Made by a program: the position numbers and the translations under genes. DNA of 64,000 nucleotides from Patescibacteria group bacterium (lineage in GTDB: Bacteria; Patescibacteriota; Minisyncoccia; Phycocordibacterales; JBHPGB01): positions 6,796 to 70,795 of the forward strand of contig JBHPGB010000002.1 in the NCBI GenBank assembly GCA_042571085.1. The letters are read 5' to 3'. Each line of letters begins with the position of its first letter. The first letter of the stretch is position 1. The notes below the pieces were generated by a model that was given only the letters and a program-made list of their open reading frames with translations, made no database searches and had not been told where the DNA came from. This document shows, one piece after another, positions 12,623-55,333 of the stretch.

Positions 12623-15346
12623 TTATATTTTAGACATTGATTTTAGAAAAATACTAAAATCGCTAATATTAATTATACCATTATTATCAAAATCAAGTGC
12701 ATTACGCAGTGGATTATTTTCGTCTCCCCATCTAAAAAGAAAGATACTCCAATCTGTAATATCAATTGCATCATCATCGTTCAAATCTGTATTTGCTGAT
12801 ACTTGTCCAGAAACTTTAAAAGTTATCGGATATGAATACGTACTTGTTATTTCGTTCCAAGTTTGTCTGACTTTTGCAAAATAAATACCCTCTTCAATTT
12901 CGGATGCGGGAATTTCAAATAAATATGAACCATCTGAACCAGCATCTGTTTCAAACTTATAAGTCCCATCCAAACTAAGCTCCACAACACTATTTGCAGC
13001 CGTATGACCAAACACAATCAAGTTTTCACTGAGATTTAAGTATTCCTTTTCAATACTTATTGTTGGTGACATGAGAATATTTTCAACAACAAGACTTCGC
13101 TCTGAATTAAAATCAACCCTGAAAGACATTATTCCGGTTTCGTGCTCATCTTTATCTACTGCTTTTAAAGTAATGAAATATTTACCTGTCAGAAGTGCCG
13201 TATAATCGATATAAAATTCTCCATTTTCTGTAATCCTATTTATGGCAATGGGGATATTTTGAAAAGAAGGATTGACATCATTTACCATTGAAACTAAAAT
13301 TTGGCTTCTAGGAAAAGCTTGCCCGGAAAATCTAATTTTTGTTGCAGCAGATCCGCCGCCGCCTTCTAGTACGGTTATAGATGGTCCTTCTAGTGTTGTT
13401 TCATTTGTAACATTGGAGAGTGCTGACTCATTAGGTGCCTCATCTGAAGTTTTCATTGCAAAATAATATGTCGTACCTGAATTCAAACTAGAAACGGTCA
13501 TTGATTCGCCAGTACCTGCAATAGACGGAGTCGGTTCTCCTGTGGCCTGTGTCGCACTACCCCAATTACCATCATTAATAGTTGCTGTGGAATATCTCAC
13601 GTCATATGTTGTCGCAGTGCCACTAGATCCATCGTCTCCTGGAGCAGTCCAAGACAAATCTATCGCGTAACTAGCTGGGTTAGAAGCAGCAAGATCGGAA
13701 ACAGCTGCTGGTGGTGTGGAATCTCCAGATGAGGTTGTGGTATCACTCGCTACATTTGAAAGCCCTGACTCATTGGGAACTTCATCAGAAGTCTTCATTG
13801 CAAAATAATATGTTGTGCCAGCGCTCAGACCTGTGACAGTCATTGATTCGGCTGTACTTGCAACAGACGGTGATGGTTCATCCGGAACTACAGGTGTAGC
13901 GGAAGCCCAGTTGCCATCATTAATAGTTGCTGTGGAATATCTAATATCATATGTAGTCGCTGTGCCACTAGATCCATCGTCTCCTGGAGCAGTCCAATCT
14001 AAATCAATAGTAGTATCTGTTGGAGATGATGCTGCTAAATCTGAAGTGGTTGATGGTGGAGTTGAATCTCCAGACACCCCTGTTGCAGCACTCGTAACAT
14101 TAGAAAGTCCGGATTCATTTGGTACTTCATCTGAGGTCTTCATTGCAAAGTAGTACGTAGTATCTGCACTTAGTCCAGTAACTGTCATTGATTCAGCAGT
14201 ACTAGCAACGGATGGTGATGGCTCATCTGGAACAACAGGAGTTGCTGAGGCCCAGTTGCCGTCGTTGATAGTTGCGGTTGAGTATCTAATATCATAAGTA
14301 GTGGCAGTACCTGTACTTCCATCATCTCCAGGGGCTGTCCAATCAAGATCTATAGTAGAAGTAGTCGGGCCAGAAGCTGTAAGATCAGAAGTGGTTGCCG
14401 GTGGAGTTGAATCACCAGCAGGACTTGTTGCAGCACTCGTCACATTAGAAAGCGCAGACTCGTTTGGAACCTCATCTGATGTTTTCATTGCAAAATAGTA
14501 TGTTGTGCCAGCACTCAGACCTGTGACAGTCATTGATTCGGCTGTACTTGCAACAGACGGTGATGGTTCATCCGGAACTACAGGAGTTGCTGAGGCCCAG
14601 TTGCCGTCGTTGATAGTTGCGGTTGAGTATCTAATATCATAAGTAGTGGCAGTACCTGTACTTCCATCATCTCCAGGGGCTGTCCAGTCTAGATCTATAG
14701 TCGTGCTTGTTGGACCAGAAGCAGTCAGATCAGAGGTTGTTGCTGGTGGAGTCGAGTCTGCCGGGGTGTAGGTGATAACTGTTTTTAATTGAGAAATCCT
14801 CACATCCTTACCTGCGCTTGTGTCAATAATACCAATCTCTATATCACTCCCACTTGCTTTAGTATGACTCACTGAAAAAGACTGCGTTGCTTCTGCATAA
14901 CTATTCCCTGTTGTAAGATCTGCTCCAGAACTTGTACAGGCACCATCAAAACAATAACGAGTCTGAAATGTACCACCATTTGAACCCTCTTTAAAATAAC
15001 AAGCAGTAACATCTATATTAGTAATGGATGCACCATCTGGAATACCTGATTCATCAATATCAAACGTTTGACTCACGTCAACACCGTTACTATATATGTA
15101 TGAAATATCTCCATCCGAATTAGCACATTCAGCGCCAGTGGTTTCATCAACTTCCAAATAACAATCAGCGGCATTACATGCTGTAGCACCGGTATTTAAC
15201 CAACTTGCACTGTCTTCTCCACCATCAGCGGACGGCATCAAAGAAGAGGTAACGTCTGCAGACACACTAACAACCATTATTGCGATCCAAGCAATAATAA
15301 AAGCGCCTAAAAAAATGGAGAATTTTTTGATTTCAAATTTAATCAT
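12623..15346 (-). CDS. large surface protein with 4 tandem fibronectin type III-like repeats and a C-terminal type-I dockerin module
   Basis: N-terminal signal/TM. Four roughly 115-aa near-identical repeats (TPPATTSDL...TTYYFAMKTSDEVPNES). C-terminal duplicated Ca-binding dockerin repeats DLNDDDAIDITDWSIFL and DFDNNGIINISDFSIFL. Confidence 0.7.
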   Translation of the reverse strand: MIKFEIKKFSIFLGAFIIAWIAIMVVSVSADVTSSLMPSADGGEDSASWLNTGATACNAADCYLEVDETTGAECANSDGDISYIYSNGVDVSQTFDIDESGIPDGASITNIDVTACYFKEGSNGGTFQTRYCFDGACTSSGADLTTGNSYAEATQSFSVSHTKASGSDIEIGIIDTSAGKDVRISQLKTVITYTPADSTPPATTSDLTASGPTSTTIDLDWTAPGDDGSTGTATTYDIRYSTATINDGNWASATPVVPDEPSPSVASTAESMTVTGLSAGTTYYFAMKTSDEVPNESALSNVTSAATSPAGDSTPPATTSDLTASGPTTSTIDLDWTAPGDDGSTGTATTYDIRYSTATINDGNWASATPVVPDEPSPSVASTAESMTVTGLSADTTYYFAMKTSDEVPNESGLSNVTSAATGVSGDSTPPSTTSDLAASSPTDTTIDLDWTAPGDDGSSGTATTYDIRYSTATINDGNWASATPVVPDEPSPSVASTAESMTVTGLSAGTTYYFAMKTSDEVPNESGLSNVASDTTTSSGDSTPPAAVSDLAASNPASYAIDLSWTAPGDDGSSGTATTYDVRYSTATINDGNWGSATQATGEPTPSIAGTGESMTVSSLNSGTTYYFAMKTSDEAPNESALSNVTNETTLEGPSITVLEGGGGSAATKIRFSGQAFPRSQILVSMVNDVNPSFQNIPIAINRITENGEFYIDYTALLTGKYFITLKAVDKDEHETGIMSFRVDFNSERSLVVENILMSPTISIEKEYLNLSENLIVFGHTAANSVVELSLDGTYKFETDAGSDGSYLFEIPASEIEEGIYFAKVRQTWNEITSTYSYPITFKVSGQVSANTDLNDDDAIDITDWSIFLFRWGDENNPLRNALDFDNNGIINISDFSIFLKSMSKI
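13390..14765. repeat. four tandem direct repeats of about 345 bp (FN3-repeat coding units)
   Basis: Repeat anchors TTCATTGCAAA(A/G)TA at about 13452, 13794, 14140 and 14485 (spacing 341-346 bp). Units 1-3 are nearly identical at nucleotide level. Confidence 0.8.
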
Positions 15347-23011: not shown

Positions 23012-23166
23012 GGGTTAATTGTATCATACGTCAAAACACACGTCAGTACTGACGTGTGTTTTGTGAAAAATTGATTCACGTCTTGGTGCCCTTTGTAGGA
23101 GCATCCGCGATGCGAATTCGAGCTTTGTGATACAGAAGCTTCGCTTCGTATCACAAACCCTAATTC

Positions 23167-23281
23167 GGCTGCCAGATAGGGACTCGCCTCTCACAAATCA
23201 AAGATTTGTTCCGAAACGCACTATTTTTATAATCGCTTCGCTCTTTAAAAATAGGCGCCTACGGTTCGAGTCCTATATCTG
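23167..23281. repeat. tRNA-associated element copy 1: conserved core of about 76 nt flanked by an inverted and a direct copy of the tRNA-Gln 3' end
   Basis: GGCTGCCAGATAGGGACTCG (reverse complement of the tRNA-Gln T-arm/acceptor 3' strand), then core CCTCTCACAAATCAAAGATTTGTTCCGAAACGCACTATTTTTATA...AAAAATAGGCGCCTAC, then GGTTCGAGTCCTATATCTG. Same core at 40405-40522. Confidence 0.75.
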
Positions 23282-23332
23282 AAAAACACGCAATAAAACA
23301 GACCTCACAAAAGAGGTCTGTTTTATTGCGAG

Positions 23333-23403
23333 CTGCCAGATAGGGACTCGAACCCCAATAGACGGCACCAAAAGCCGTAGTCCTACCATTAGACGATCTG
23401 GCA
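23333..23403 (-). tRNA. tRNA-Gln (anticodon TTG)
   Basis: Manual fold: acceptor TGCCAGA/TCTGGCA, D-stem GTCT/GGAC, anticodon stem ACGGC/GCCGT with loop TTTTGGT, T-arm TGGGG-TTCGAGT-CCCTA. CCA not encoded. Confidence 0.75.
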
Positions 23404-23475: not shown

Positions 23476-23505
23476 CGTAGTCCTACCATTAGACGATCTG
23501 GCAAT
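23476..23505 (-). pseudogene. exact duplicate of the 5' 28 nt of tRNA-Gln (5'-half pseudo-copy) about 70 nt upstream of the tRNA
   Basis: CGTAGTCCTACCATTAGACGATCTGGCAAT is identical to the 5' part of the tRNA gene at 23376-23405. Confidence 0.7.
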
Positions 23506-35835: not shown

Positions 35836-35899
35836 GCCGGAGTGGTGGAATTGGTATACACGCACGACTCAAAATCGTGTTCCGCAAGGATTGAGGGTT
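35836..35899 (+). pseudogene. truncated tRNA-Leu(CAA) copy: the 5' 64 nt are identical to the complete gene 200 nt downstream, then diverge
   Basis: GCCGGAGTGGTGGAATTGGTATACACGCACGACTCAAAATCGTGTTCCGCAAGGATTGAGGGTT followed by GAACTCCGAGC instead of the T-loop/acceptor. Confidence 0.65.
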
Positions 35900-35931
35900 G
35901 AACTCCGAGCTAGACGAGGAGTGAAAAACCT

Positions 35932-35987
35932 TTTGAGGTAGATTAGAGTGAGGTACGAACGAATAATGTACCCAAAAGGTGTACTGA
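35932..35987. repeat. conserved tRNA-cluster motif (family 2), copy at the Leu(CAA) locus
   Basis: TTTGAGGTAGATTAGAGTGAGGTACGAACGAATAATGTACCCAAAAGGT. Related copies at 50976-51032, 51405-51452, partial at 49932-49947. Confidence 0.65.
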
Positions 35988-36033
35988 TCCTGTAAGGATC
36001 AAGTCCGGACTTGAACCCTTTAAAATTAAATAT

Positions 36034-36115
36034 GCCGGAGTGGTGGAATTGGTATACACGCACGACTCAAAATCGTGTTCCGCAAGGATTGAGGGTTCAA
36101 GTCCCTCCTCCGGCA
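36034..36115 (+). tRNA. tRNA-Leu (anticodon CAA), type II with long variable arm
   Basis: Acceptor GCCGGAG/CTCCGGC. Anticodon stem CACGA/TCGTG, loop CTCAAAA. T-arm GGGTTCAAGTCCC. Confidence 0.8.
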
Positions 36116-36228
36116 CAAAAAGAAAAATCTCAAGTTTTGCTTGAGATTTTTACTTTTTACAAACTAGACAAATGTAATCAAAAAGACTACTATGCTGCCA
36201 GGCTTCCTATGATCTAATGGAGAATATA

Positions 36229-39677: not shown

Positions 39678-40337
39678 TCACAAAGACCAATTTATTGGTT
39701 TTTTGTTGTTTTTTGTAAGATATTCGTTAGCTTTTTTAAAATGATCACAACCGAAAAAACCACTATATGCAGAAAAAGGAGACGGGTGTGGGGCTTCTAA
39801 TATAAGATGTTTATTTTTATCTATAAGTACAGATTTTGCACGTGCATAATTTCCCCATAGCACAAATACAACATTTTCTTTTTCATCCGATATTTTTTTA
39901 ATTACAAAATCAGTGAAACCTTCCCAGCCTTTTCCTGCATGAGACGCTGGAGAATTTTTAATCACTGTTAGTACCGCATTTAGCATAAGCACTCCCTGCT
40001 TTGCCCAACCTTCTAAATCACCATTCTCTCTTTCAATACCTACTTCTTTTAAAATATTTTTAAGAGATGGTGGAAGTTTAATTCCTTCATTTACTGAAAA
40101 ACAAAGTCCATTTGCTTGCTCTGCTCCATGATATGGATCTTGCCCGAGTATTACCACTGAAACTTTACTGAACGGACACAAATCAAAAGCACGAAAAATC
40201 TGCTTTGGTGGCGGATAAACTTCTTTTGATACATATTCTTTTTCCACAAAATCAGTAAGTGCTTGAAAATCTTCTCGTTCAAAATACTCATTCAAAATCT
40301 TTTTCCAAGATTTTTCTATCTTTATGTCTTTTGTCAT
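39678..40337 (-). CDS. ung: uracil-DNA glycosylase, family 1
   Basis: GQDPYH water-activating motif. Leu-intercalation loop region HPSPFSA. 219 aa. Confidence 0.85.
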   Translation of the reverse strand: MTKDIKIEKSWKKILNEYFEREDFQALTDFVEKEYVSKEVYPPPKQIFRAFDLCPFSKVSVVILGQDPYHGAEQANGLCFSVNEGIKLPPSLKNILKEVGIERENGDLEGWAKQGVLMLNAVLTVIKNSPASHAGKGWEGFTDFVIKKISDEKENVVFVLWGNYARAKSVLIDKNKHLILEAPHPSPFSAYSGFFGCDHFKKANEYLTKNNKKPINWSL

Positions 40338-40404
40338 GTTGGGTATTATACAATAGATGCATCACAAACAAAAAAAGAGCTGTCGCTCTTTTTTTTGGTG
40401 AAAT

Positions 40405-40522
40405 GTGCGCCGAGTAGGATTTGCCTCTCACAAATCAAAGATTTGTTCCGAAACGCACTATTTTTATAGTCGTTAAACACTCCTTAAAAATAGGCGCCTA
40501 CGGTTCAAACCCTACTCGGCAT
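40405..40522. repeat. tRNA-associated element copy 2: same conserved core flanked by an inverted and a direct copy of the tRNA-Tyr 3' end
   Basis: GTGCGCCGAGTAGGATTTG (reverse complement of the tRNA-Tyr 3' end), core identical to the 23187-23262 core over its first 46 nt and last 16 nt, then GGTTCAAACCCTACTCGGCAT. Confidence 0.75.
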
Positions 40523-40572
40523 AATAAATATAAAAAACGATAATCTTTTCAGATTACCGTTTTTTATGTTTA

Positions 40573-40658
40573 TGGTGCGCCGAGTAGGATTTGAACCTAC
40601 GTAGGACAAGTCCGGCAGATTTACAGTCTGCTGCGATTGACCACTCCGCCATCGACGC
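40573..40658 (-). tRNA. tRNA-Tyr (anticodon GTA), long variable arm, CCA encoded
   Basis: GCGTCGATGGCGGAGTGGTCAATCGCAGCAGACTGTAAATCTGCCGGACTTGTCCTACGTAGGTTCAAATCCTACTCGGCGCACCA. Confidence 0.8.
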
Positions 40659-49893: not shown

Positions 49894-49921
49894 GGTCTGG
49901 TGGCGAAGTGGTAACGTAGCG
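49894..49921 (+). pseudogene. tRNA-Cys-like 5' fragment (26 of 28 nt identical to the 5' part of tRNA-Cys 120 nt downstream)
   Basis: GGTCTGGTGGCGAAGTGGTAACGTAGCG versus GGCCTGGTGGCGAAGTGGTAACGCAGCG. Followed by a family-2 motif fragment (AAAGGAGTGAAGCGAC) rather than an anticodon arm. Confidence 0.55.
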
Positions 49922-50200: not shown

Positions 50201-50692
50201 ATGCACGGAAAAGAGAAAAAAAGAAGATGGTCAGAAGATGACTTAAAAAATGCTGTGTTGAATTCTACAAGTATTCGACAAGTTCTGGGTAAGCTTAATT
50301 TAAAACAAGCTGGTGGAAATTATGTGCAGGTCAAATATTATATTAAAAAATATAATATTGATATAAAACATTTTACTGGACAAGGCTGGAACAAGGGAAT
50401 GCGCGGCATTGGTAAACCTAGAATTTCTTTAAAAGAAATTCTAACAAAAAATAGTTCTTTTCAAAGTTATAAATTAAAAAAAAGACTTTTTAAAGAAGGT
50501 CTAAAAAAACCACAATGTGAAGAGTGTGGCTGGGCAAAAAAATCTAAAGACGGAAGAATTCCTTTAGAGTTAGATCATGTGAATGGTACCCGAACAGATA
50601 ATCGATTAGAAAATTTACGAGTACTATGCCCAAACTGCCATAGTCTAAAACCTACACATCGTGGATTGAACAAAAAAAAGGGCCAGTGGTGA
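50201..50692 (+). CDS. free-standing HNH endonuclease (homing-endonuclease-like), embedded in the tRNA cluster; the stop overlaps the 5' end of tRNA-Leu(TAA)
   Basis: HNH motif CEECGW...LELDHVNGTRTDNRLENLRVLCPNCH. Basic N-terminal DNA-binding-like region. Confidence 0.7.
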   Translation: MHGKEKKRRWSEDDLKNAVLNSTSIRQVLGKLNLKQAGGNYVQVKYYIKKYNIDIKHFTGQGWNKGMRGIGKPRISLKEILTKNSSFQSYKLKKRLFKEGLKKPQCEECGWAKKSKDGRIPLELDHVNGTRTDNRLENLRVLCPNCHSLKPTHRGLNKKKGQW

Positions 50693-50826: not shown

Positions 50827-50899
50827 CCGCCTGTAGCTCAGTTGGTAGAGCATCCGACTCTTAATCGGCAGGTCGAAGGTTCAAATCCTTCCGGGCGGA
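50827..50899 (+). tRNA. tRNA-Lys (anticodon CTT)
   Basis: CCGCCTGTAGCTCAGTTGGTAGAGCATCCGACTCTTAATCGGCAGGTCGAAGGTTCAAATCCTTCCGGGCGGA. Confidence 0.8.
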
Positions 50900-50975
50900 C
50901 ACGCAGCGTTAGCGTAGTGCACAACCGGAAGCACAGCAATTTTGAAAAAATTGCGTCATGCGGATTTGAAAAGCT

Positions 50976-51032
50976 TTTGAGATAGATTGGAGTGCGGAGC
51001 ACGAACAATATATCCAAAAGGTTGAAGTGTGA
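50976..51032. repeat. conserved tRNA-cluster motif (family 2), copy downstream of tRNA-Lys
   Basis: TTTGAGATAGATTGGAGTGCGGAGCACGAACAATATATCCAAAAGGTTGAAGTGTGA. Covarying triloop hairpin GTGC-GGA-GCAC (GTG-AGG-TAC and TGC-GAA-GCA in other copies). Confidence 0.65.
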
Positions 51033-51134
51033 TTTTTATGAACACTGAAAGACCATTTGAGTTAATTTCGAATCTGAAAGATGAAGAAAATAACCAAATG
51101 GTATACTGCTCATGTAATGAGGGCAGAATCTGTA

Positions 51135-51162
51135 AGATTCAAATCCTTCCGGGCGGACACGC
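51135..51162 (+). repeat. direct repeat of the 3' 28 nt of tRNA-Lys, about 230 nt downstream of the gene
   Basis: GATTCAAATCCTTCCGGGCGGACACGCA versus tRNA GGTTCAAATCCTTCCGGGCGGACACGCA (27 of 28 nt). Confidence 0.7.
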
Positions 51163-51185
51163 AATTTAGCGTAAAATTAAATAAT

Positions 51186-51267
51186 GCGGGTGTGGTGGAA
51201 TTGGTATACACGCTAGTCTTAGGAACTAGTGCCTCACGGCTTAAGAGTTCGAGTCTCTTCACCCGCA
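51186..51267 (+). tRNA. tRNA-Leu (anticodon TAG), type II
   Basis: Acceptor GCGGGTG/CACCCGC. Anticodon stem CTAGT/ACTAG, loop CTTAGGA. T-arm GAGTTCGAGTCTC. Confidence 0.8.
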
Positions 51268-51404
51268 CAAAACAAAAAAGTGTGATGCGTCAGCATTACA
51301 CTTTTATTGTTTTGTAGTGTGGTGGAGAAACTCGAAAAAAGCTTCCGGTATACAAGAAGCGACTGGAAGGAGCTTCTTGTCGGAAGCGACGGGGTCGCGT
51401 AGCT

Positions 51405-51475
51405 TAGATATTTTGGAGTGCGAAGCATGAACAAAATATCAAGCGAAGGCGACCGAGTCTCTTCACCCGCACAAA
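51405..51475 (+). repeat. family-2 motif copy fused to a 22-nt direct repeat of the tRNA-Leu(TAG) 3' end
   Basis: TAGATATTTTGGAGTGCGAAGCATGAACAAAATATCAAGCGAAGGCGAC followed by CGAGTCTCTTCACCCGCACAAA (identical to the tRNA 3' end plus 3 flanking nt). Confidence 0.7.
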
Positions 51476-51638
51476 TAAAAGACGAAAATGCTATGCATTT
51501 TCGTCTTTTTGCTTGTATTTAAAAAGTGATACTACCTTGACTTTTAACCTATTTTATGCTTAAATATAGCCAGAACAGTTCGGGGCTTTAGGGATTAATT
51601 CCCTCCCCTTTTGACAATTTTTTGACTGGAGAATAATC

Positions 51639-52787
51639 ATGAGTAAATTCGACTTATATTCCTATGGAATAGTTGGACTAATCATATTGCTGATTGTGTC
51701 ACTAATTATCTTTAGTAAACGCAAAAAAGCTAGAAAACCTGTTGATATTGAGATCATTGCTGAAGATGCTCTTGCGCAACGATGCGTATGGTCACGTAAC
51801 ATACATTTTGTATTTATAACAGCACTTGCTGCGTACACACCTTTCTTTGTGTCAGATTTACTATACGTCAAACTTGTACCACATCTCGGTGCGTGGTTTA
51901 GTGAATTTGAAACACCTAGAGCTACAATAATGGCTCTTTGTGTATACATAGTATGGGGCATGTATGGATACTTTCTACCGCGTAGGCTGTTGACCTTCGT
52001 GCCAAAAGTCAAGGGTTTTGTTTCGCAAGACATCTTCAAAAAAAGAGATGTAATGGTTCCTTATGGGCCAGGTCTTCATGCGTCATTCTTTTGGGAAGCT
52101 CGAGACAAAGACAGTAACGTGCCACTGGAGACATTTTCATGGTCAGATACAGTCACCATACCTACGAGCACCTCTGCTGTGGAGTTTGAATACACAGTAG
52201 TATGTCGTGCATACATGCCAAAACTGCCAGAGTTTCATGCTACAGATGAAACTGTATTGAGAGAAAAGTTTTTGCAAATATATGAAACCTTTCTTTCAGT
52301 CTGGGTAAATAAAAATATAGACGATGAGGTGAATGGTTCCATAGAAAAAGATGTTGCCTATATCGTAAAGAACGGTGTGCATGATGTAAATGAAGCATTG
52401 AAAAAAGTTTTCACCTTTAAACCTGGAGAAAGATACGTGCCAGAACAGGACGAGGAGAAACTTTTCGCATACCAGCACGGGACTCTCATCATAAGTACTG
52501 GCGTAAACAAAGTTAAATTGCCAGATGAAGTACAAAAAACTCGTGATGCACTTGCTGAATCCGAAACCATATTTGCAGGAACCGCAAGTATCCTCGGATT
52601 AAAATCAAATGAACTACGACAACGTCTTGACGGTGAAACAGTGTCGCATGAGCAATATGAGGCCGCACGAGCTGTATATCTGTCAACAAGTGGCAATGCA
52701 AAACTAGACTTTATAAACGTCACAGGAACGGCAGCCGATGCAGTAAATGCGCTAATTGGCAAACATCTGAAAGGAGGTGTTCAATGA
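51639..52787 (+). CDS. membrane protein, possible SPFH/band-7-like domain
   Basis: GGAG RBS. Two N-terminal TM segments. PGLH block reminiscent of stomatin/prohibitin-like proteins. Weak assignment. Confidence 0.45.
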   Translation: MSKFDLYSYGIVGLIILLIVSLIIFSKRKKARKPVDIEIIAEDALAQRCVWSRNIHFVFITALAAYTPFFVSDLLYVKLVPHLGAWFSEFETPRATIMALCVYIVWGMYGYFLPRRLLTFVPKVKGFVSQDIFKKRDVMVPYGPGLHASFFWEARDKDSNVPLETFSWSDTVTIPTSTSAVEFEYTVVCRAYMPKLPEFHATDETVLREKFLQIYETFLSVWVNKNIDDEVNGSIEKDVAYIVKNGVHDVNEALKKVFTFKPGERYVPEQDEEKLFAYQHGTLIISTGVNKVKLPDEVQKTRDALAESETIFAGTASILGLKSNELRQRLDGETVSHEQYEAARAVYLSTSGNAKLDFINVTGTAADAVNALIGKHLKGGVQ

Positions 52788-53349: not shown

Positions 53350-53649
53350 CTAAACAGGGTTTGTGAATCCAAAAGTATTGGCTAAGAATGTAACTATGCC
53401 CATAACGGAAATCATAATAAACATACCAAAGAGCCCCCACATGATATGCTTCTTGCCTTGCTCACGCGCATTTTCATCATTTGCTTGAAACAAGAAGCGT
53501 GCGATTCCCCAAAGGAATAATACAAGGGCAAGTGCAAACAAAAATCCAATAAGAGGATTTATTATGTTGTCTACAACCCTATCAATAAGTGGCTCAAGCC
53601 CAGACTCTACTACCGCAGCATGCACTGTTTGTACATTTAGAACATTCAT
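53350..53649 (-). CDS. VirB2/TrbC-like small membrane protein, paralogue 1 (start at MNVLNV; the ORF-track start at 53697 would overlap the upstream paralogue)
   Basis: Two hydrophobic helices separated by a conserved charged loop ANDENAREQGKKH. Confidence 0.45.
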   Translation of the reverse strand: MNVLNVQTVHAAVVESGLEPLIDRVVDNIINPLIGFLFALALVLFLWGIARFLFQANDENAREQGKKHIMWGLFGMFIMISVMGIVTFLANTFGFTNPV

Positions 53650-53653
53650 AGAT

Positions 53654-53977
53654 TTATATTCTTGGTAATGTGATTGTACCACCTGTCTGTACACCAAATG
53701 TATTAGCTACAACTTCAACAAGACCCCACACCGCAACCATCACGAAGAGTGCCAAGATACCATAGATCATGATGCTCTTTCCTTTTTCTTTATCTTCATC
53801 AGCCTTGAAGATGTACTGTGCCAATCCATAGAAAAATCCAATAAGAGCAACAGTCATCACAATTGGAATAATTAAATCCAATATTTGTTTAAACTTGTTT
53901 AAAACAGATATAGCATCTGCTGCCAATGCAACACTAGGAAGTGCTACTGCACCAGCAATAATAAGAAATCTTTTCAT
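53654..53977 (-). CDS. VirB2/TrbC-like small membrane protein, paralogue 2
   Basis: Signal peptide. Two TM helices. Loop KADEDKEKGKS. Confidence 0.45.
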   Translation of the reverse strand: MKRFLIIAGAVALPSVALAADAISVLNKFKQILDLIIPIVMTVALIGFFYGLAQYIFKADEDKEKGKSIMIYGILALFVMVAVWGLVEVVANTFGVQTGGTITLPRI

Positions 53978-54117
53978 ACAAATAAAATTAATTGATTAAA
54001 TTGATTAAAAAAATTAAAAGCGACCTTGTAATTTATACTTATATAATAGCCAATATACTCACAAATAACAAATCAAATGTGGAAAATTAATTTTCAACCT
54101 ACAAAATAAAGGTGTTA

Positions 54118-54459
54118 TTAAAAACCGAAAAATGTTCTCCGTACAGCAATCGCAATTCCCCACACTGCAATAAGAGCAAATAAGGCAAAAATACCAAATA
54201 CCATAGCTTTGCGCCCTTCCTCGCGAGCATTTGCATCGTCTGCCTTCAATACCATCTTCGCAATTCCCCAAAAAAATCCTGCCAAAGCGGCTGTTATTAG
54301 AATAGGGATCGCAATATCAAAAATACGTGTGAAAATACCTAGAAAATCTGCAAAATTTGTAGGAGCCGCAGCAAAAGAAATGGTTGGGCTAAGTAATAAT
54401 ACCACGTATAAAATTGCCGTAGATAAGATATTTATTCTTCTGTTTTTTAAATTTAACAT
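54118..54459 (-). CDS. VirB2/TrbC-like small membrane protein, paralogue 3
   Basis: Signal peptide. Two TM helices. Loop KADDANAREEGRK. Confidence 0.45.
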   Translation of the reverse strand: MLNLKNRRINILSTAILYVVLLLSPTISFAAAPTNFADFLGIFTRIFDIAIPILITAALAGFFWGIAKMVLKADDANAREEGRKAMVFGIFALFALIAVWGIAIAVRRTFFGF

Positions 54460-54547
54460 TTTTAAATTTCACGACTCGGCTTCGCCTCGCTGCACTGCGT
54501 TTTGTATTCAATCACTGCGTTCTTGAACAAAACGGGAGCATAATAAT

Positions 54548-54904
54548 TTACCTTAATGTGCTTATTGTTCCGCCTATCGCCTCTGCAAGAACCCATGCGC
54601 CAAGTATAATCGCTCCGCCAATGATAGACCACGTAAGTGCTGTTTTTGCTTCTCCAAGCTTTGTTTCATTACCTTGTGCCTTAATATACAAAAATCCAGA
54701 ATACACTATTGCAAGCACAACAACAGGAAAACCGATGTCAGCTACAACCTTAAGTACTTTCTGCAAAAATATATATATAGTATCAGTGCCCCTAAGAGGG
54801 TTTTCCAAATCCTGACTTATTACTGGCGTGTCTGCAAAAACAGTGTTTACGGAAGCAAAAAAAGCAACGAGTGATGTGTAATAAATTTTATTAAATAATT
54901 TCAT
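54548..54904 (-). CDS. VirB2/TrbC-like small membrane protein, paralogue 4
   Basis: Signal peptide. Two TM helices. Loop KAQGNETKLGEAK. Confidence 0.45.
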   Translation of the reverse strand: MKLFNKIYYTSLVAFFASVNTVFADTPVISQDLENPLRGTDTIYIFLQKVLKVVADIGFPVVVLAIVYSGFLYIKAQGNETKLGEAKTALTWSIIGGAIILGAWVLAEAIGGTISTLR

Positions 54905-54928
54905 AAGATTTTTATTAAAAGTATTAAA

Positions 54929-55333
54929 TTATCTCCCAAGTCTAATTGCCCAATCTTCTGCACCAAGACCTACAAGAATTGCTTTCACAATAAGCCACGC
55001 TGCAAGTATTATTACCAAGCCAATAAAAACAGATGTGAAAATTCCGTGTGCTTTTTTTATCTGTCCTGTATCCCCAGCTGCTGTAATATACATCCACCCA
55101 GCATACGCAAATGCAACCGCAGCAACAAATGGTGACGCCATTATTATAAATTCAATAATATTTTGAGCGAGTTGTACAAGCATATTAAAATCACAGTCTG
55201 GTTGTCCACTACCACCACATGGAACAAGTTTCTTCTCAGCGGCAAAAACAATAATCGGCATAAATAGCACCATACTCAATACTGTTGCATACAAAACCTT
55301 TATTATTTTGTTTTCATGTTTTAATGTTTTCAT
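54929..55333 (-). CDS. VirB2/TrbC-like small membrane protein, paralogue 5 (extra Cys pair)
   Basis: Signal peptide. CGGSGQPDC. Two TM helices. Loop AAGDTGQIKKAH. Confidence 0.45.
   Translation of the reverse strand: MKTLKHENKIIKVLYATVLSMVLFMPIIVFAAEKKLVPCGGSGQPDCDFNMLVQLAQNIIEFIIMASPFVAAVAFAYAGWMYITAAGDTGQIKKAHGIFTSVFIGLVIILAAWLIVKAILVGLGAEDWAIRLGR

Follow-up and report, generated by a model that had tools for sequence, protein, structure and literature searches.

A direct repeat of the 3' part of a tRNA gene, running from the T-loop and accompanied by a restored tRNA, is the textbook signature of tRNA-targeting integrases, and the T-loop is reportedly one of the sublocations used by these enzymes (Williams 2002). 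The element described here, located next to a tRNA-Tyr gene in a genome of the Patescibacteria (candidate phyla radiation; ∼38% G+C), shares several features with tyrosine-integrase elements of the P4 type: it appears to be inserted in the segment between the T-loop and the 3' end, the tRNA is rebuilt at one junction, the displaced 3' fragment is kept as a direct repeat of 19–30 nt, and tandem copies are possible. Unlike tRNA-targeting integrase elements, however, the unit measures ∼170–230 bp and contains no gene, no integrase was found in or beside it, the attachment segment is also present as an inverted copy, and the same core is combined with three different tRNA segments.

The design also resembles that of the CTX-phi attP(+) site and Xer-dependent elements and of the integron attC site, in which two inverted copies form a hairpin resembling the duplex target. 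Single-strand exchange followed by replication would produce the integrated order seen here (site, spacer, inverted site, element and site), and the cassettes are interchangeable and can form arrays, as in integrons. However, the target here is the tRNA T-loop rather than dif or attI, and a single-stranded form is something that we purely infer. The junctions GAA(CC) and GGTTCRA do not fit RYYYAAC/GTTRRRY, and there is no R/L-box consensus (GTTCRAN versus GTTRRRY).

Small size, lack of an ORF, conserved hairpins, a fixed orientation and a short target motif are shared with the IS200/IS605-derived PATEs and with REP/REPIN sequences and their RAYT. HUH (Y1) transposases mobilise those elements, which neither produce repeats derived from the target nor are specific for tRNAs; here, target-derived repeats are present. 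MITEs are likewise short, non-coding and repeated, with inverted repeats and a direct repeat of the target; in a MITE, however, the inverted repeats are part of the element and do not vary between copies, whereas here the arms follow the tRNA and the interior is constant. No description of the present insertion architecture was found in the literature searched. The combination of target-derived inverted and direct arms, interchangeable structured cores, the lack of a gene and a very high occupancy of tRNA genes in a reduced genome is unusual for tRNA-targeting non-autonomous elements and might prove to represent a new class.

The element at tRNA-Tyr and further copies of its core

The window, i.e. 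the whole stretch of DNA that was analysed, comprises 64,000 nucleotides, and all coordinates refer to it unless another locus is named. The features at tRNA-Tyr are:

40573–40658, minus strand: tRNA-Tyr (GTA), intact, with encoded CCA (ARAGORN, and Rfam tRNA at 60.6 bits)
40530–40567, minus strand: t1, a terminator-like hairpin between tRNA-Tyr and the element, 17 pairs and a T run
40504–40522, minus strand: inverted arm A', ATGCCGAGTAGGGTTTGAA in tRNA sense
40424–40503, minus strand: core A, 80 nt
40467–40485, minus strand: apical loop of hairpin P2, from the alignment of the core A copies
40405–40423, minus strand: direct arm A, CAAATCCTACTCGGCGCAC, an exact 19-nt copy of tRNA-Tyr
40370–40395, minus strand: t2, a second terminator directly past the direct arm and upstream of ung
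39678–40337, minus strand: ung (PF03167)

On the minus strand the order is thus tRNA-Tyr, t1, A', core A, direct arm A, t2 and ung, and the element itself comprises 118 bases (40405–40522). Both arms derive from the 3' part of tRNA-Tyr from C56 onward (40575–40593), in line with the original prediction that they are made from the adjacent tRNA 3' end. The direct arm extends from C56 of the T-loop to the discriminator+1 and is identical at 19/19 positions in direct orientation; read on the plus strand, 40405–40423 matches 19 nt of the tRNA 3' part as a perfect reverse complement. The inverted arm is a copy of the region from T54 to the acceptor 3' strand, with 18/19 positions identical (1–2 mismatches); the segment 40502–40522 is a near-copy of GGTTCAAATCCTACTCGGC with its orientation reversed. 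Together with the inverted arm, the tRNA 3' part forms a long palindrome, of which hairpin t1 is the tip. A second assembly (L001) has an identical Tyr locus. An assembly artefact is ruled out, as the sequences recur in independently assembled data and in different samples (L001 for the Tyr locus; neighbouring elements in L020 and L021; L026–L028).

The element had originally been recognised as the second copy of a core present near position 23187, and the sequence comparison bears this out. The 45-mer CCTCTCACAAATCAAAGATTTGTTCCGAAACGCACTATTTTTATA occurs exactly twice in the window (23187–23231 and 40424–40468), where none is expected by chance and none was obtained in 100 shuffles. The 3' part of core A is also common to both copies (repeat families D6 and D14), and the cores at 40424–40503 and 23187–23264 match save for one hairpin loop. 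A covariance model of core A gives these two copies scores of 111.5 and 106.2 bits, and no other part of the window exceeds 16 bits. The sister copy lies behind tRNA-Gln:

23168–23403, minus strand: sister copy at tRNA-Gln, whole locus
23333–23403, minus strand: tRNA-Gln
23289–23330, minus strand: t1
23265–23281, minus strand: inverted arm A'
23187–23264, minus strand: core A
23168–23186, minus strand: direct arm, 19/19 identical

The two loci share one plan, in which the tRNA is followed by a terminator, the inverted copy, the core, an exact direct copy from C56 and a second hairpin, which at tRNA-Tyr is a clear terminator. It had been proposed that the Tyr copy is probably co-transcribed with its tRNA and that the Gln locus differs from it by an intervening hairpin. 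A terminator-like hairpin, overlooked in that reading at tRNA-Tyr (40530–40567), separates tRNA and element at both loci; hence, neither proposal is supported, and the argument built on the contrast falls. On the 3' side of the Gln element (23030–23165), further hairpins are located at 23121–23160 and 23030–23062, and a stretch ending in ...CTACAAAGGGCACCA (tRNA sense) resembles another tRNA 3' end and may be the remnant of an older insertion.

Further copies were sought beyond the window. A scan of 185,579 species genomes for core A returned eight loci, all from GC-rich organisms, which we attribute to chance given their scores of 10–15 bits with the core model. A scan of metagenomes returned one true copy (104.9 bits) on contig L010. 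It is located behind a third, different tRNA, whose gene is cut by the contig end. The order in L010 is tRNA 3' end, terminator, decayed inverted arm, core A, direct arm and second terminator. The direct arm is exact (20/20 identical) and starts at C56, and of the three core A copies this is the one with a decayed outer stem. Despite their different tRNAs, the Gln and L010 copies have t1 hairpins that are ∼80% alike, which suggests that the terminator moves together with the core. Core A was found three times in total (Tyr, Gln and L010). Its borders with A' and A fall at identical positions at these three different tRNAs, while the arms differ wholly between copies, each matching the local tRNA.

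Core A consists of the hairpin P2 (18 pairs, including two G-U, and two bulges), a 7-bp hairpin P3 (ACAAATC/GATTTGT) and a 3' purine tail, GAGAGG. In the folded tRNA-sense strand, A' and A form the outer stem. The three copies differ solely in the P2 apical loop and in one compensatory P2 pair (A-U to C-G); with three sequences this pair carries no statistical weight, since 171/500 shuffles do equally well. The central stretch that had been noted to differ between copies is real and corresponds to this loop. A role of the loop as a guide was rejected: it has no other match within the window, its complementarity or identity to the cognate tRNA is no better than chance, and the L010 loop matches the D-loop of the window tRNA-Tyr over 9 nt but the loop of the Tyr copy itself does not.

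Cores and empty sites at other tRNA genes

Elements with a second type of core, family B, are present at three other tRNA genes of the window, one of them in a mirror arrangement:

51186–51509, plus strand: tRNA-Leu(TAG), same architecture with a family-B core (tRNA 51186–51268; t1 51269–51313; A' 51319–51336; core 51337–51453; direct arm 51454–51475; t2 51477–51509)
50827–51163, plus strand: tRNA-Lys, variant architecture (weak inverted arm 50960–50970; family-B hairpin within a core of ∼170 nt; direct repeat of the tRNA 3' part 51138–51163, starting a few bases before C56; repeat family D8)
35836–36116, plus strand: tRNA-Leu(CAA), mirror arrangement, repeat families D3 and D4 (displaced 5' part up to T55, 35836–35899, 64/64 identical; core B 35900–35999; short palindrome CAAGTCC/GGACTTGAACC 36000–36017; intact tRNA 36034–36116)

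The mirror arrangement is seen upstream of tRNA-Leu(CAA), in the window and in the related locus L011, and upstream of tRNA-Gln in L015. It begins with a tRNA 5' part that ends exactly at T55, followed by a family-B core and the first 7–10 nt past C56, and continues with a short inverted copy of those bases, a spacer containing the promoter-like GTTACAATARAATAT, and the intact tRNA. The displaced 5' parts are identical (64/64) to the working tRNA-Leu in each of two genomes, whose tRNA-Leu genes differ in sequence from one another. Common to both arrangements is that the core joins a displaced, non-functional fragment precisely at T55/C56, the other copy serving to rebuild the working tRNA. The hairpin of family B is conserved, with covarying pairs. 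The T-loop motif GGTTCRANYC occurs ten times in the window (1.5 expected), six times in tRNA genes and three times in inverted arms.

Extra 5' parts of tRNA-Gln (23476–23503, 28/28 identical; also present in L016) and tRNA-Cys (49894–49921, ∼96% identical) were observed ∼100–150 nt upstream of the respective genes. Behind each of them lies degraded tRNA-like sequence that has an insertion close to the anticodon stem. These extra parts may represent earlier layers of the mirror arrangement, or else duplicates that have decayed.

We fetched the orthologous loci of relatives through their ung and dnaX homologues. The architecture is carried by 10 of the 16 non-redundant tRNA loci examined, and the content of a given slot varies as follows:

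tRNA-Tyr slot, window: core A
tRNA-Tyr slot, L011 (ung 85% identical to that of the window): family-B core unrelated to core A, direct arm of ∼30 nt
tRNA-Tyr slot, L012 (ung 75% identical to that of the window): same tRNA 3' end and nothing further (empty site)
tRNA-Gln slot, window: core A
tRNA-Gln slot, L015: B-short core in two tandem units, 100% identical
tRNA-Gln slot, L016: B-long core, inverted arm perfect, direct arm decayed
tRNA-Gln slot, L019: core C
tRNA-Gln slot, L026–L028 (dnaX 71% identical, three samples): another B-like core
tRNA-Gln slot, L025: no core; 28 nt downstream, a direct copy of the tRNA 3' part in decayed form
tRNA-Leu(CAA) downstream slot: empty in the window, core C in L011

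In L011, tRNA-Tyr and the inverted arm are the same as in the window. The 34-nt terminator hairpin of t1 (40530–40567; L011 9020–9057) is present as an exact reverse complement, i.e. its loop and mismatch are reversed and the flanking arms are unchanged. This "flip/flop" suggests either inversion between the inverted arms or hairpin-mediated copying. The direct repeat also varies in length, from 19 nt at tRNA-Tyr of the window to ∼30 nt in L011 and ∼65 nt in L016, where it runs through the terminator. In L015 (12300–13215), tRNA-Gln is embedded in arrays, with three units upstream and two downstream. An upstream unit consists of a short palindrome, the promoter-like GTTACAATAGAATAT, a tRNA 5' part and a core; the downstream units measure 163 nt each and are 100% identical, and one inverted arm bears a 26-nt hairpin insertion. 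In the more distant relative L025 (11201–11260), the decayed direct copy reads TTCGAGTTCTAGTTCGACAG and is possibly the footprint of a lost element.

A candidate mobile cassette at the T-loop

The best interpretation is that the element is a mobile, non-autonomous cassette with T55/C56 of tRNA genes as its insertion point; we assign this reading a probability of roughly 55%. A mobile cassette, rather than a terminator or an RNA gene bound to one locus, is suggested by the occurrence of one core with three sets of tRNA-derived arms at a fixed junction and in a fixed orientation; core A follows one plan behind the Gln, Tyr and L010 tRNAs. It is also suggested by the interchangeable cores, empty sites and tandem copies at orthologous slots, and by the lack of a gene inside any element. 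The original prediction had left the choice between a mobile element and a processed RNA open; the mobile reading is now strongly favoured over the processed RNA by the third copy in L010 and by the turnover or absence of cores in relatives. The restriction of core A differences to the loop and a compensatory pair fits recent spread with constraint on a cis-acting sequence.

According to this interpretation, the cassette would have inserted into the T-loop of tRNA-Tyr between T55 and C56. By supplying or duplicating the tRNA 3' part it would leave the gene intact, with the displaced 3' part remaining at the far end as the direct arm and an inverted copy placed between the tRNA terminator and the core. 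The constant part would be the 80-nt core, sequence-constrained and acting in cis, and the arms would be copied from whichever tRNA was hit. The moving form may be a circle of ∼170 nt, probably single-stranded, composed of the tRNA 3' part, terminator, inverted copy and core. Within it, the tRNA 3' part and the inverted copy could fold into a long hairpin imitating the duplex target. A trans-acting enzyme encoded outside the window would then exchange one strand at T55/C56, and replication would complete the insertion. The order tRNA, t1, A', core, A would be the exact product of a crossover inside A with a circle of A, t1, A' and core. Folded as single-stranded DNA, the 170-nt unit forms three hairpins (−42.5 kcal/mol, z = −9.7), of which A/t1/A' is the longest; the strength of this fold follows from the palindromic sequence of A, t1 and A' alone. 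For such a circle, the expected junction would join the core 3' end, GAGAGG, to CAAATCC...GCGCACCA and t1 (...TTTGTGAGAGG followed by CAAATCCTACTCGGCGCACCATAAACAT), and the empty tRNA-Tyr site would be expected to read ...GGTT, CAAATCCTACTCGGCGCAC and ATTTCACC. We infer the single-strand-circle mechanism with much lower confidence than the mobile cassette as such.

Several observations bear on the details. Displaced fragments are exact, as expected if excision returns the displaced fragment to the working tRNA; judged from sequence, their exactness would fit still-excising elements and, equally, recent insertion or gene conversion. At its end, the inverted arm reaches the complement of T54 (GAA) or G52 (GAACC), and the direct arm starts at C56; this offset resembles a 2-nt stagger but could simply belong to the core. 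The arms may have been brought by the element or copied from the target at insertion, the latter being the more novel mechanism. Against a simple circle, a fixed attachment sequence predicts one target, whereas core A has perfect direct arms for three tRNAs. Core and arm modules are also shuffled: at tRNA-Tyr, the window combines core A, and L011 core B, with the same arm and terminator. The variable length of the direct repeat, 19 to ∼65 nt, argues against a fixed identity block or a fixed target-site duplication. Against mobility in general, no excised form, same-population empty-site allele or transposition event was observed, the window yielded no enzyme for the process, and core A amounts to just three copies, all hits of the species-genome scan being due to chance.

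A tentative extension of the mobile-cassette reading is that these gene-less, T-loop-specific mini-elements constitute an undescribed class. Their cores would possibly move as tiny hairpin-shaped circles, probably single-stranded, the target-matching stem being rewritten for each tRNA entered, and would populate most tRNA genes of the lineage. If so, the stem would in effect be a self-reprogramming attachment site.

A mobile element of ∼170 nt without a gene would be among the smallest site-specific elements known. It would have a universal target in the most conserved few bases of tRNA genes (GGTTC of the T-loop) and not kill the gene, and would show how arms matching a new target arise, which bears on programmable insertion. 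The elements account for tRNA fragments and strong palindromes around the tRNA genes of these reduced genomes. They matter for tRNA annotation, for the assembly of candidate phyla radiation genomes and for software in which tRNA fragments are used to predict genomic islands, and their interchangeable cores could serve as strain-level markers.

RNA, integrase-scar and repair explanations

The tRNA-sense strand of the Tyr copy folds far better (−52.9 kcal/mol, z = −8.0) than the other strand (−38.5 kcal/mol); the corresponding energies of the Gln copy are −35.2 (z = −3.0) and −28.9 kcal/mol. This asymmetry would suit a host small RNA gene, in which the core and its tRNA-like closing stem form a stable or processed RNA of ∼120 nt rather than mobile DNA, made by read-through from the tRNA or from a promoter of its own and shaped by tRNA-processing enzymes. 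Such an RNA would also be consistent with the two invariant G-U pairs of P2, which become A-C mismatches on the other strand, with the one compensatory pair, with the terminator past the element at the Tyr and L010 copies, and with an outer stem that appears to imitate the acceptor/T-stem stack. Nevertheless, we consider this explanation unlikely. A terminator-like hairpin lies ahead of the element in all copies, no promoter-like site was found in tRNA sense at the Tyr and Gln loci, and the outer stem, which would define the 120-nt RNA, is decayed in L010. Furthermore, an RNA function gives no reason for arms that copy the neighbouring tRNA, and close relatives carry unrelated cores in the same slot, or none.

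The lack of an Rfam match also argues against a known RNA. No family of Rfam 15 was found for the element at the gathering score, in the E-value scan of the whole window or in focused scans; these scans include small self-cleaving ribozymes, tRNA-like RNAs and omega/HEARO RNAs. The E-value scans gave weak matches at chance level, in which miRNA-type or generic hairpin models pick up the palindromes. No credible ORF was found in the element. The core as an intrinsic terminator was rejected, as its hairpins have no T run and the terminator-like sites are located outside it (40530–40567 and 40370–40395). The core may additionally act as an RNA, which would be compatible with the mobile-cassette reading.

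The direct repeat of the tRNA 3' part from the T-loop, the restored tRNA and the tandem copies of L015 are all expected for islands or prophages that were integrated by a tyrosine integrase in the segment from the T-loop to the tRNA 3' end and subsequently deleted down to their attL/attR ends. It is improbable, however, that the elements are such scars, because random deletions would not leave identical boundaries at three different tRNAs, one core is associated with three different attachment sequences, and the integrase signature includes no inverted attachment sequence. In addition, no integrase or phage genes were found in or beside ∼12 elements, based on Pfam scans and the gene tables of the fetched loci.

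Other searches for an enzyme or a source were similarly negative. No recombinase or integrase was detected among the window ORFs by Pfam scans; ∼45 of these ORFs are housekeeping genes, the sole nuclease-like extra being an HNH ORF. Two genes were considered as candidates:

50201–50692, plus strand: free-standing HNH endonuclease ORF (PF13392 and PF01844), between tRNA-Cys and tRNA-Leu(TAA)
L010 392–1069, plus strand: Y1 (IS200-like) transposase gene, 130 nt from the core A copy

The stop codon of the HNH ORF overlaps the first bases of tRNA-Leu (50680). Nothing ties this ORF to the elements and no homologue is found beside elements in other loci, so it was rejected as the responsible nuclease. 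The Y1 transposase gene is flanked by its own inverted repeats (AATGGGGTCAGCCACCATT), which are unrelated to the element, and a tblastn search found no Y1_Tnp homologue in the window; its adjacency to core A is treated as coincidence. Blastn searches against phage and plasmid records gave no match to the element, and five scans of viral contigs with motifs of cores A, B and C gave no real match, the sole hit (L024) being inside an HU-like ORF and not a real copy. Source regions for the cores were not found elsewhere in the genomic sequence examined.

The tRNA 3' part, t1 and A' form a palindrome that runs uninterrupted across the 3' flank as far as the terminator loop. In addition, two genomes carry t1 in opposite orientations ("flip" and "flop"). 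Both observations would also be compatible with fold-back synthesis or with recombination that involves the inverted arms. Together with the variable length of the direct repeat, they could point to a by-product of replication or repair, in which fold-back synthesis at the terminator hairpin is combined with template switching at the conserved GGTTC microhomology and the cores are captured sequence; this is very unlikely, since chance capture does not account for the presence of one identical 80-nt core at two loci and in another organism, nor for recurrent core families with conserved covarying hairpins, nor for the constant orientation.

Readings based on introns and related structures were rejected. 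For a group I tRNA intron, there is no Intron_gpI hit, the position is in the T-loop and the core has 80 nt; published tRNA introns of Patescibacteria are group I introns located at 35/36 of the anticodon loop (PMC13011429). An archaeal-type intron, a split or permuted tRNA, a retroviral-type primer-binding site and a TnpB/IscB guide RNA were each rejected on sequence grounds, which across these readings were the core size, the lack of complementarity to CCA, the truncated 3' exon in the mirror arrangement, the lack of a nearby protein and the lack of an Rfam hit.

Several features of the window outside the elements were also observed. Downstream of the tRNA cluster, a poorly conserved ORF of 382 aa (51639–52787) has no homologue but itself in the protein collection. 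It is followed by a run of small ORFs on the minus strand (53350–55333), at least two of which have T4SS_pilin domains (53350–53697 and 54929–55333). Four tandem repeats of 342–345 bp, 73–77% identical, are located at 13394–14569 inside an ORF of 907 aa (12623–15346, minus strand). This ORF adjoins an ORF of 572 aa with a bacterial Ig-like domain and probably encodes a repetitive surface protein.
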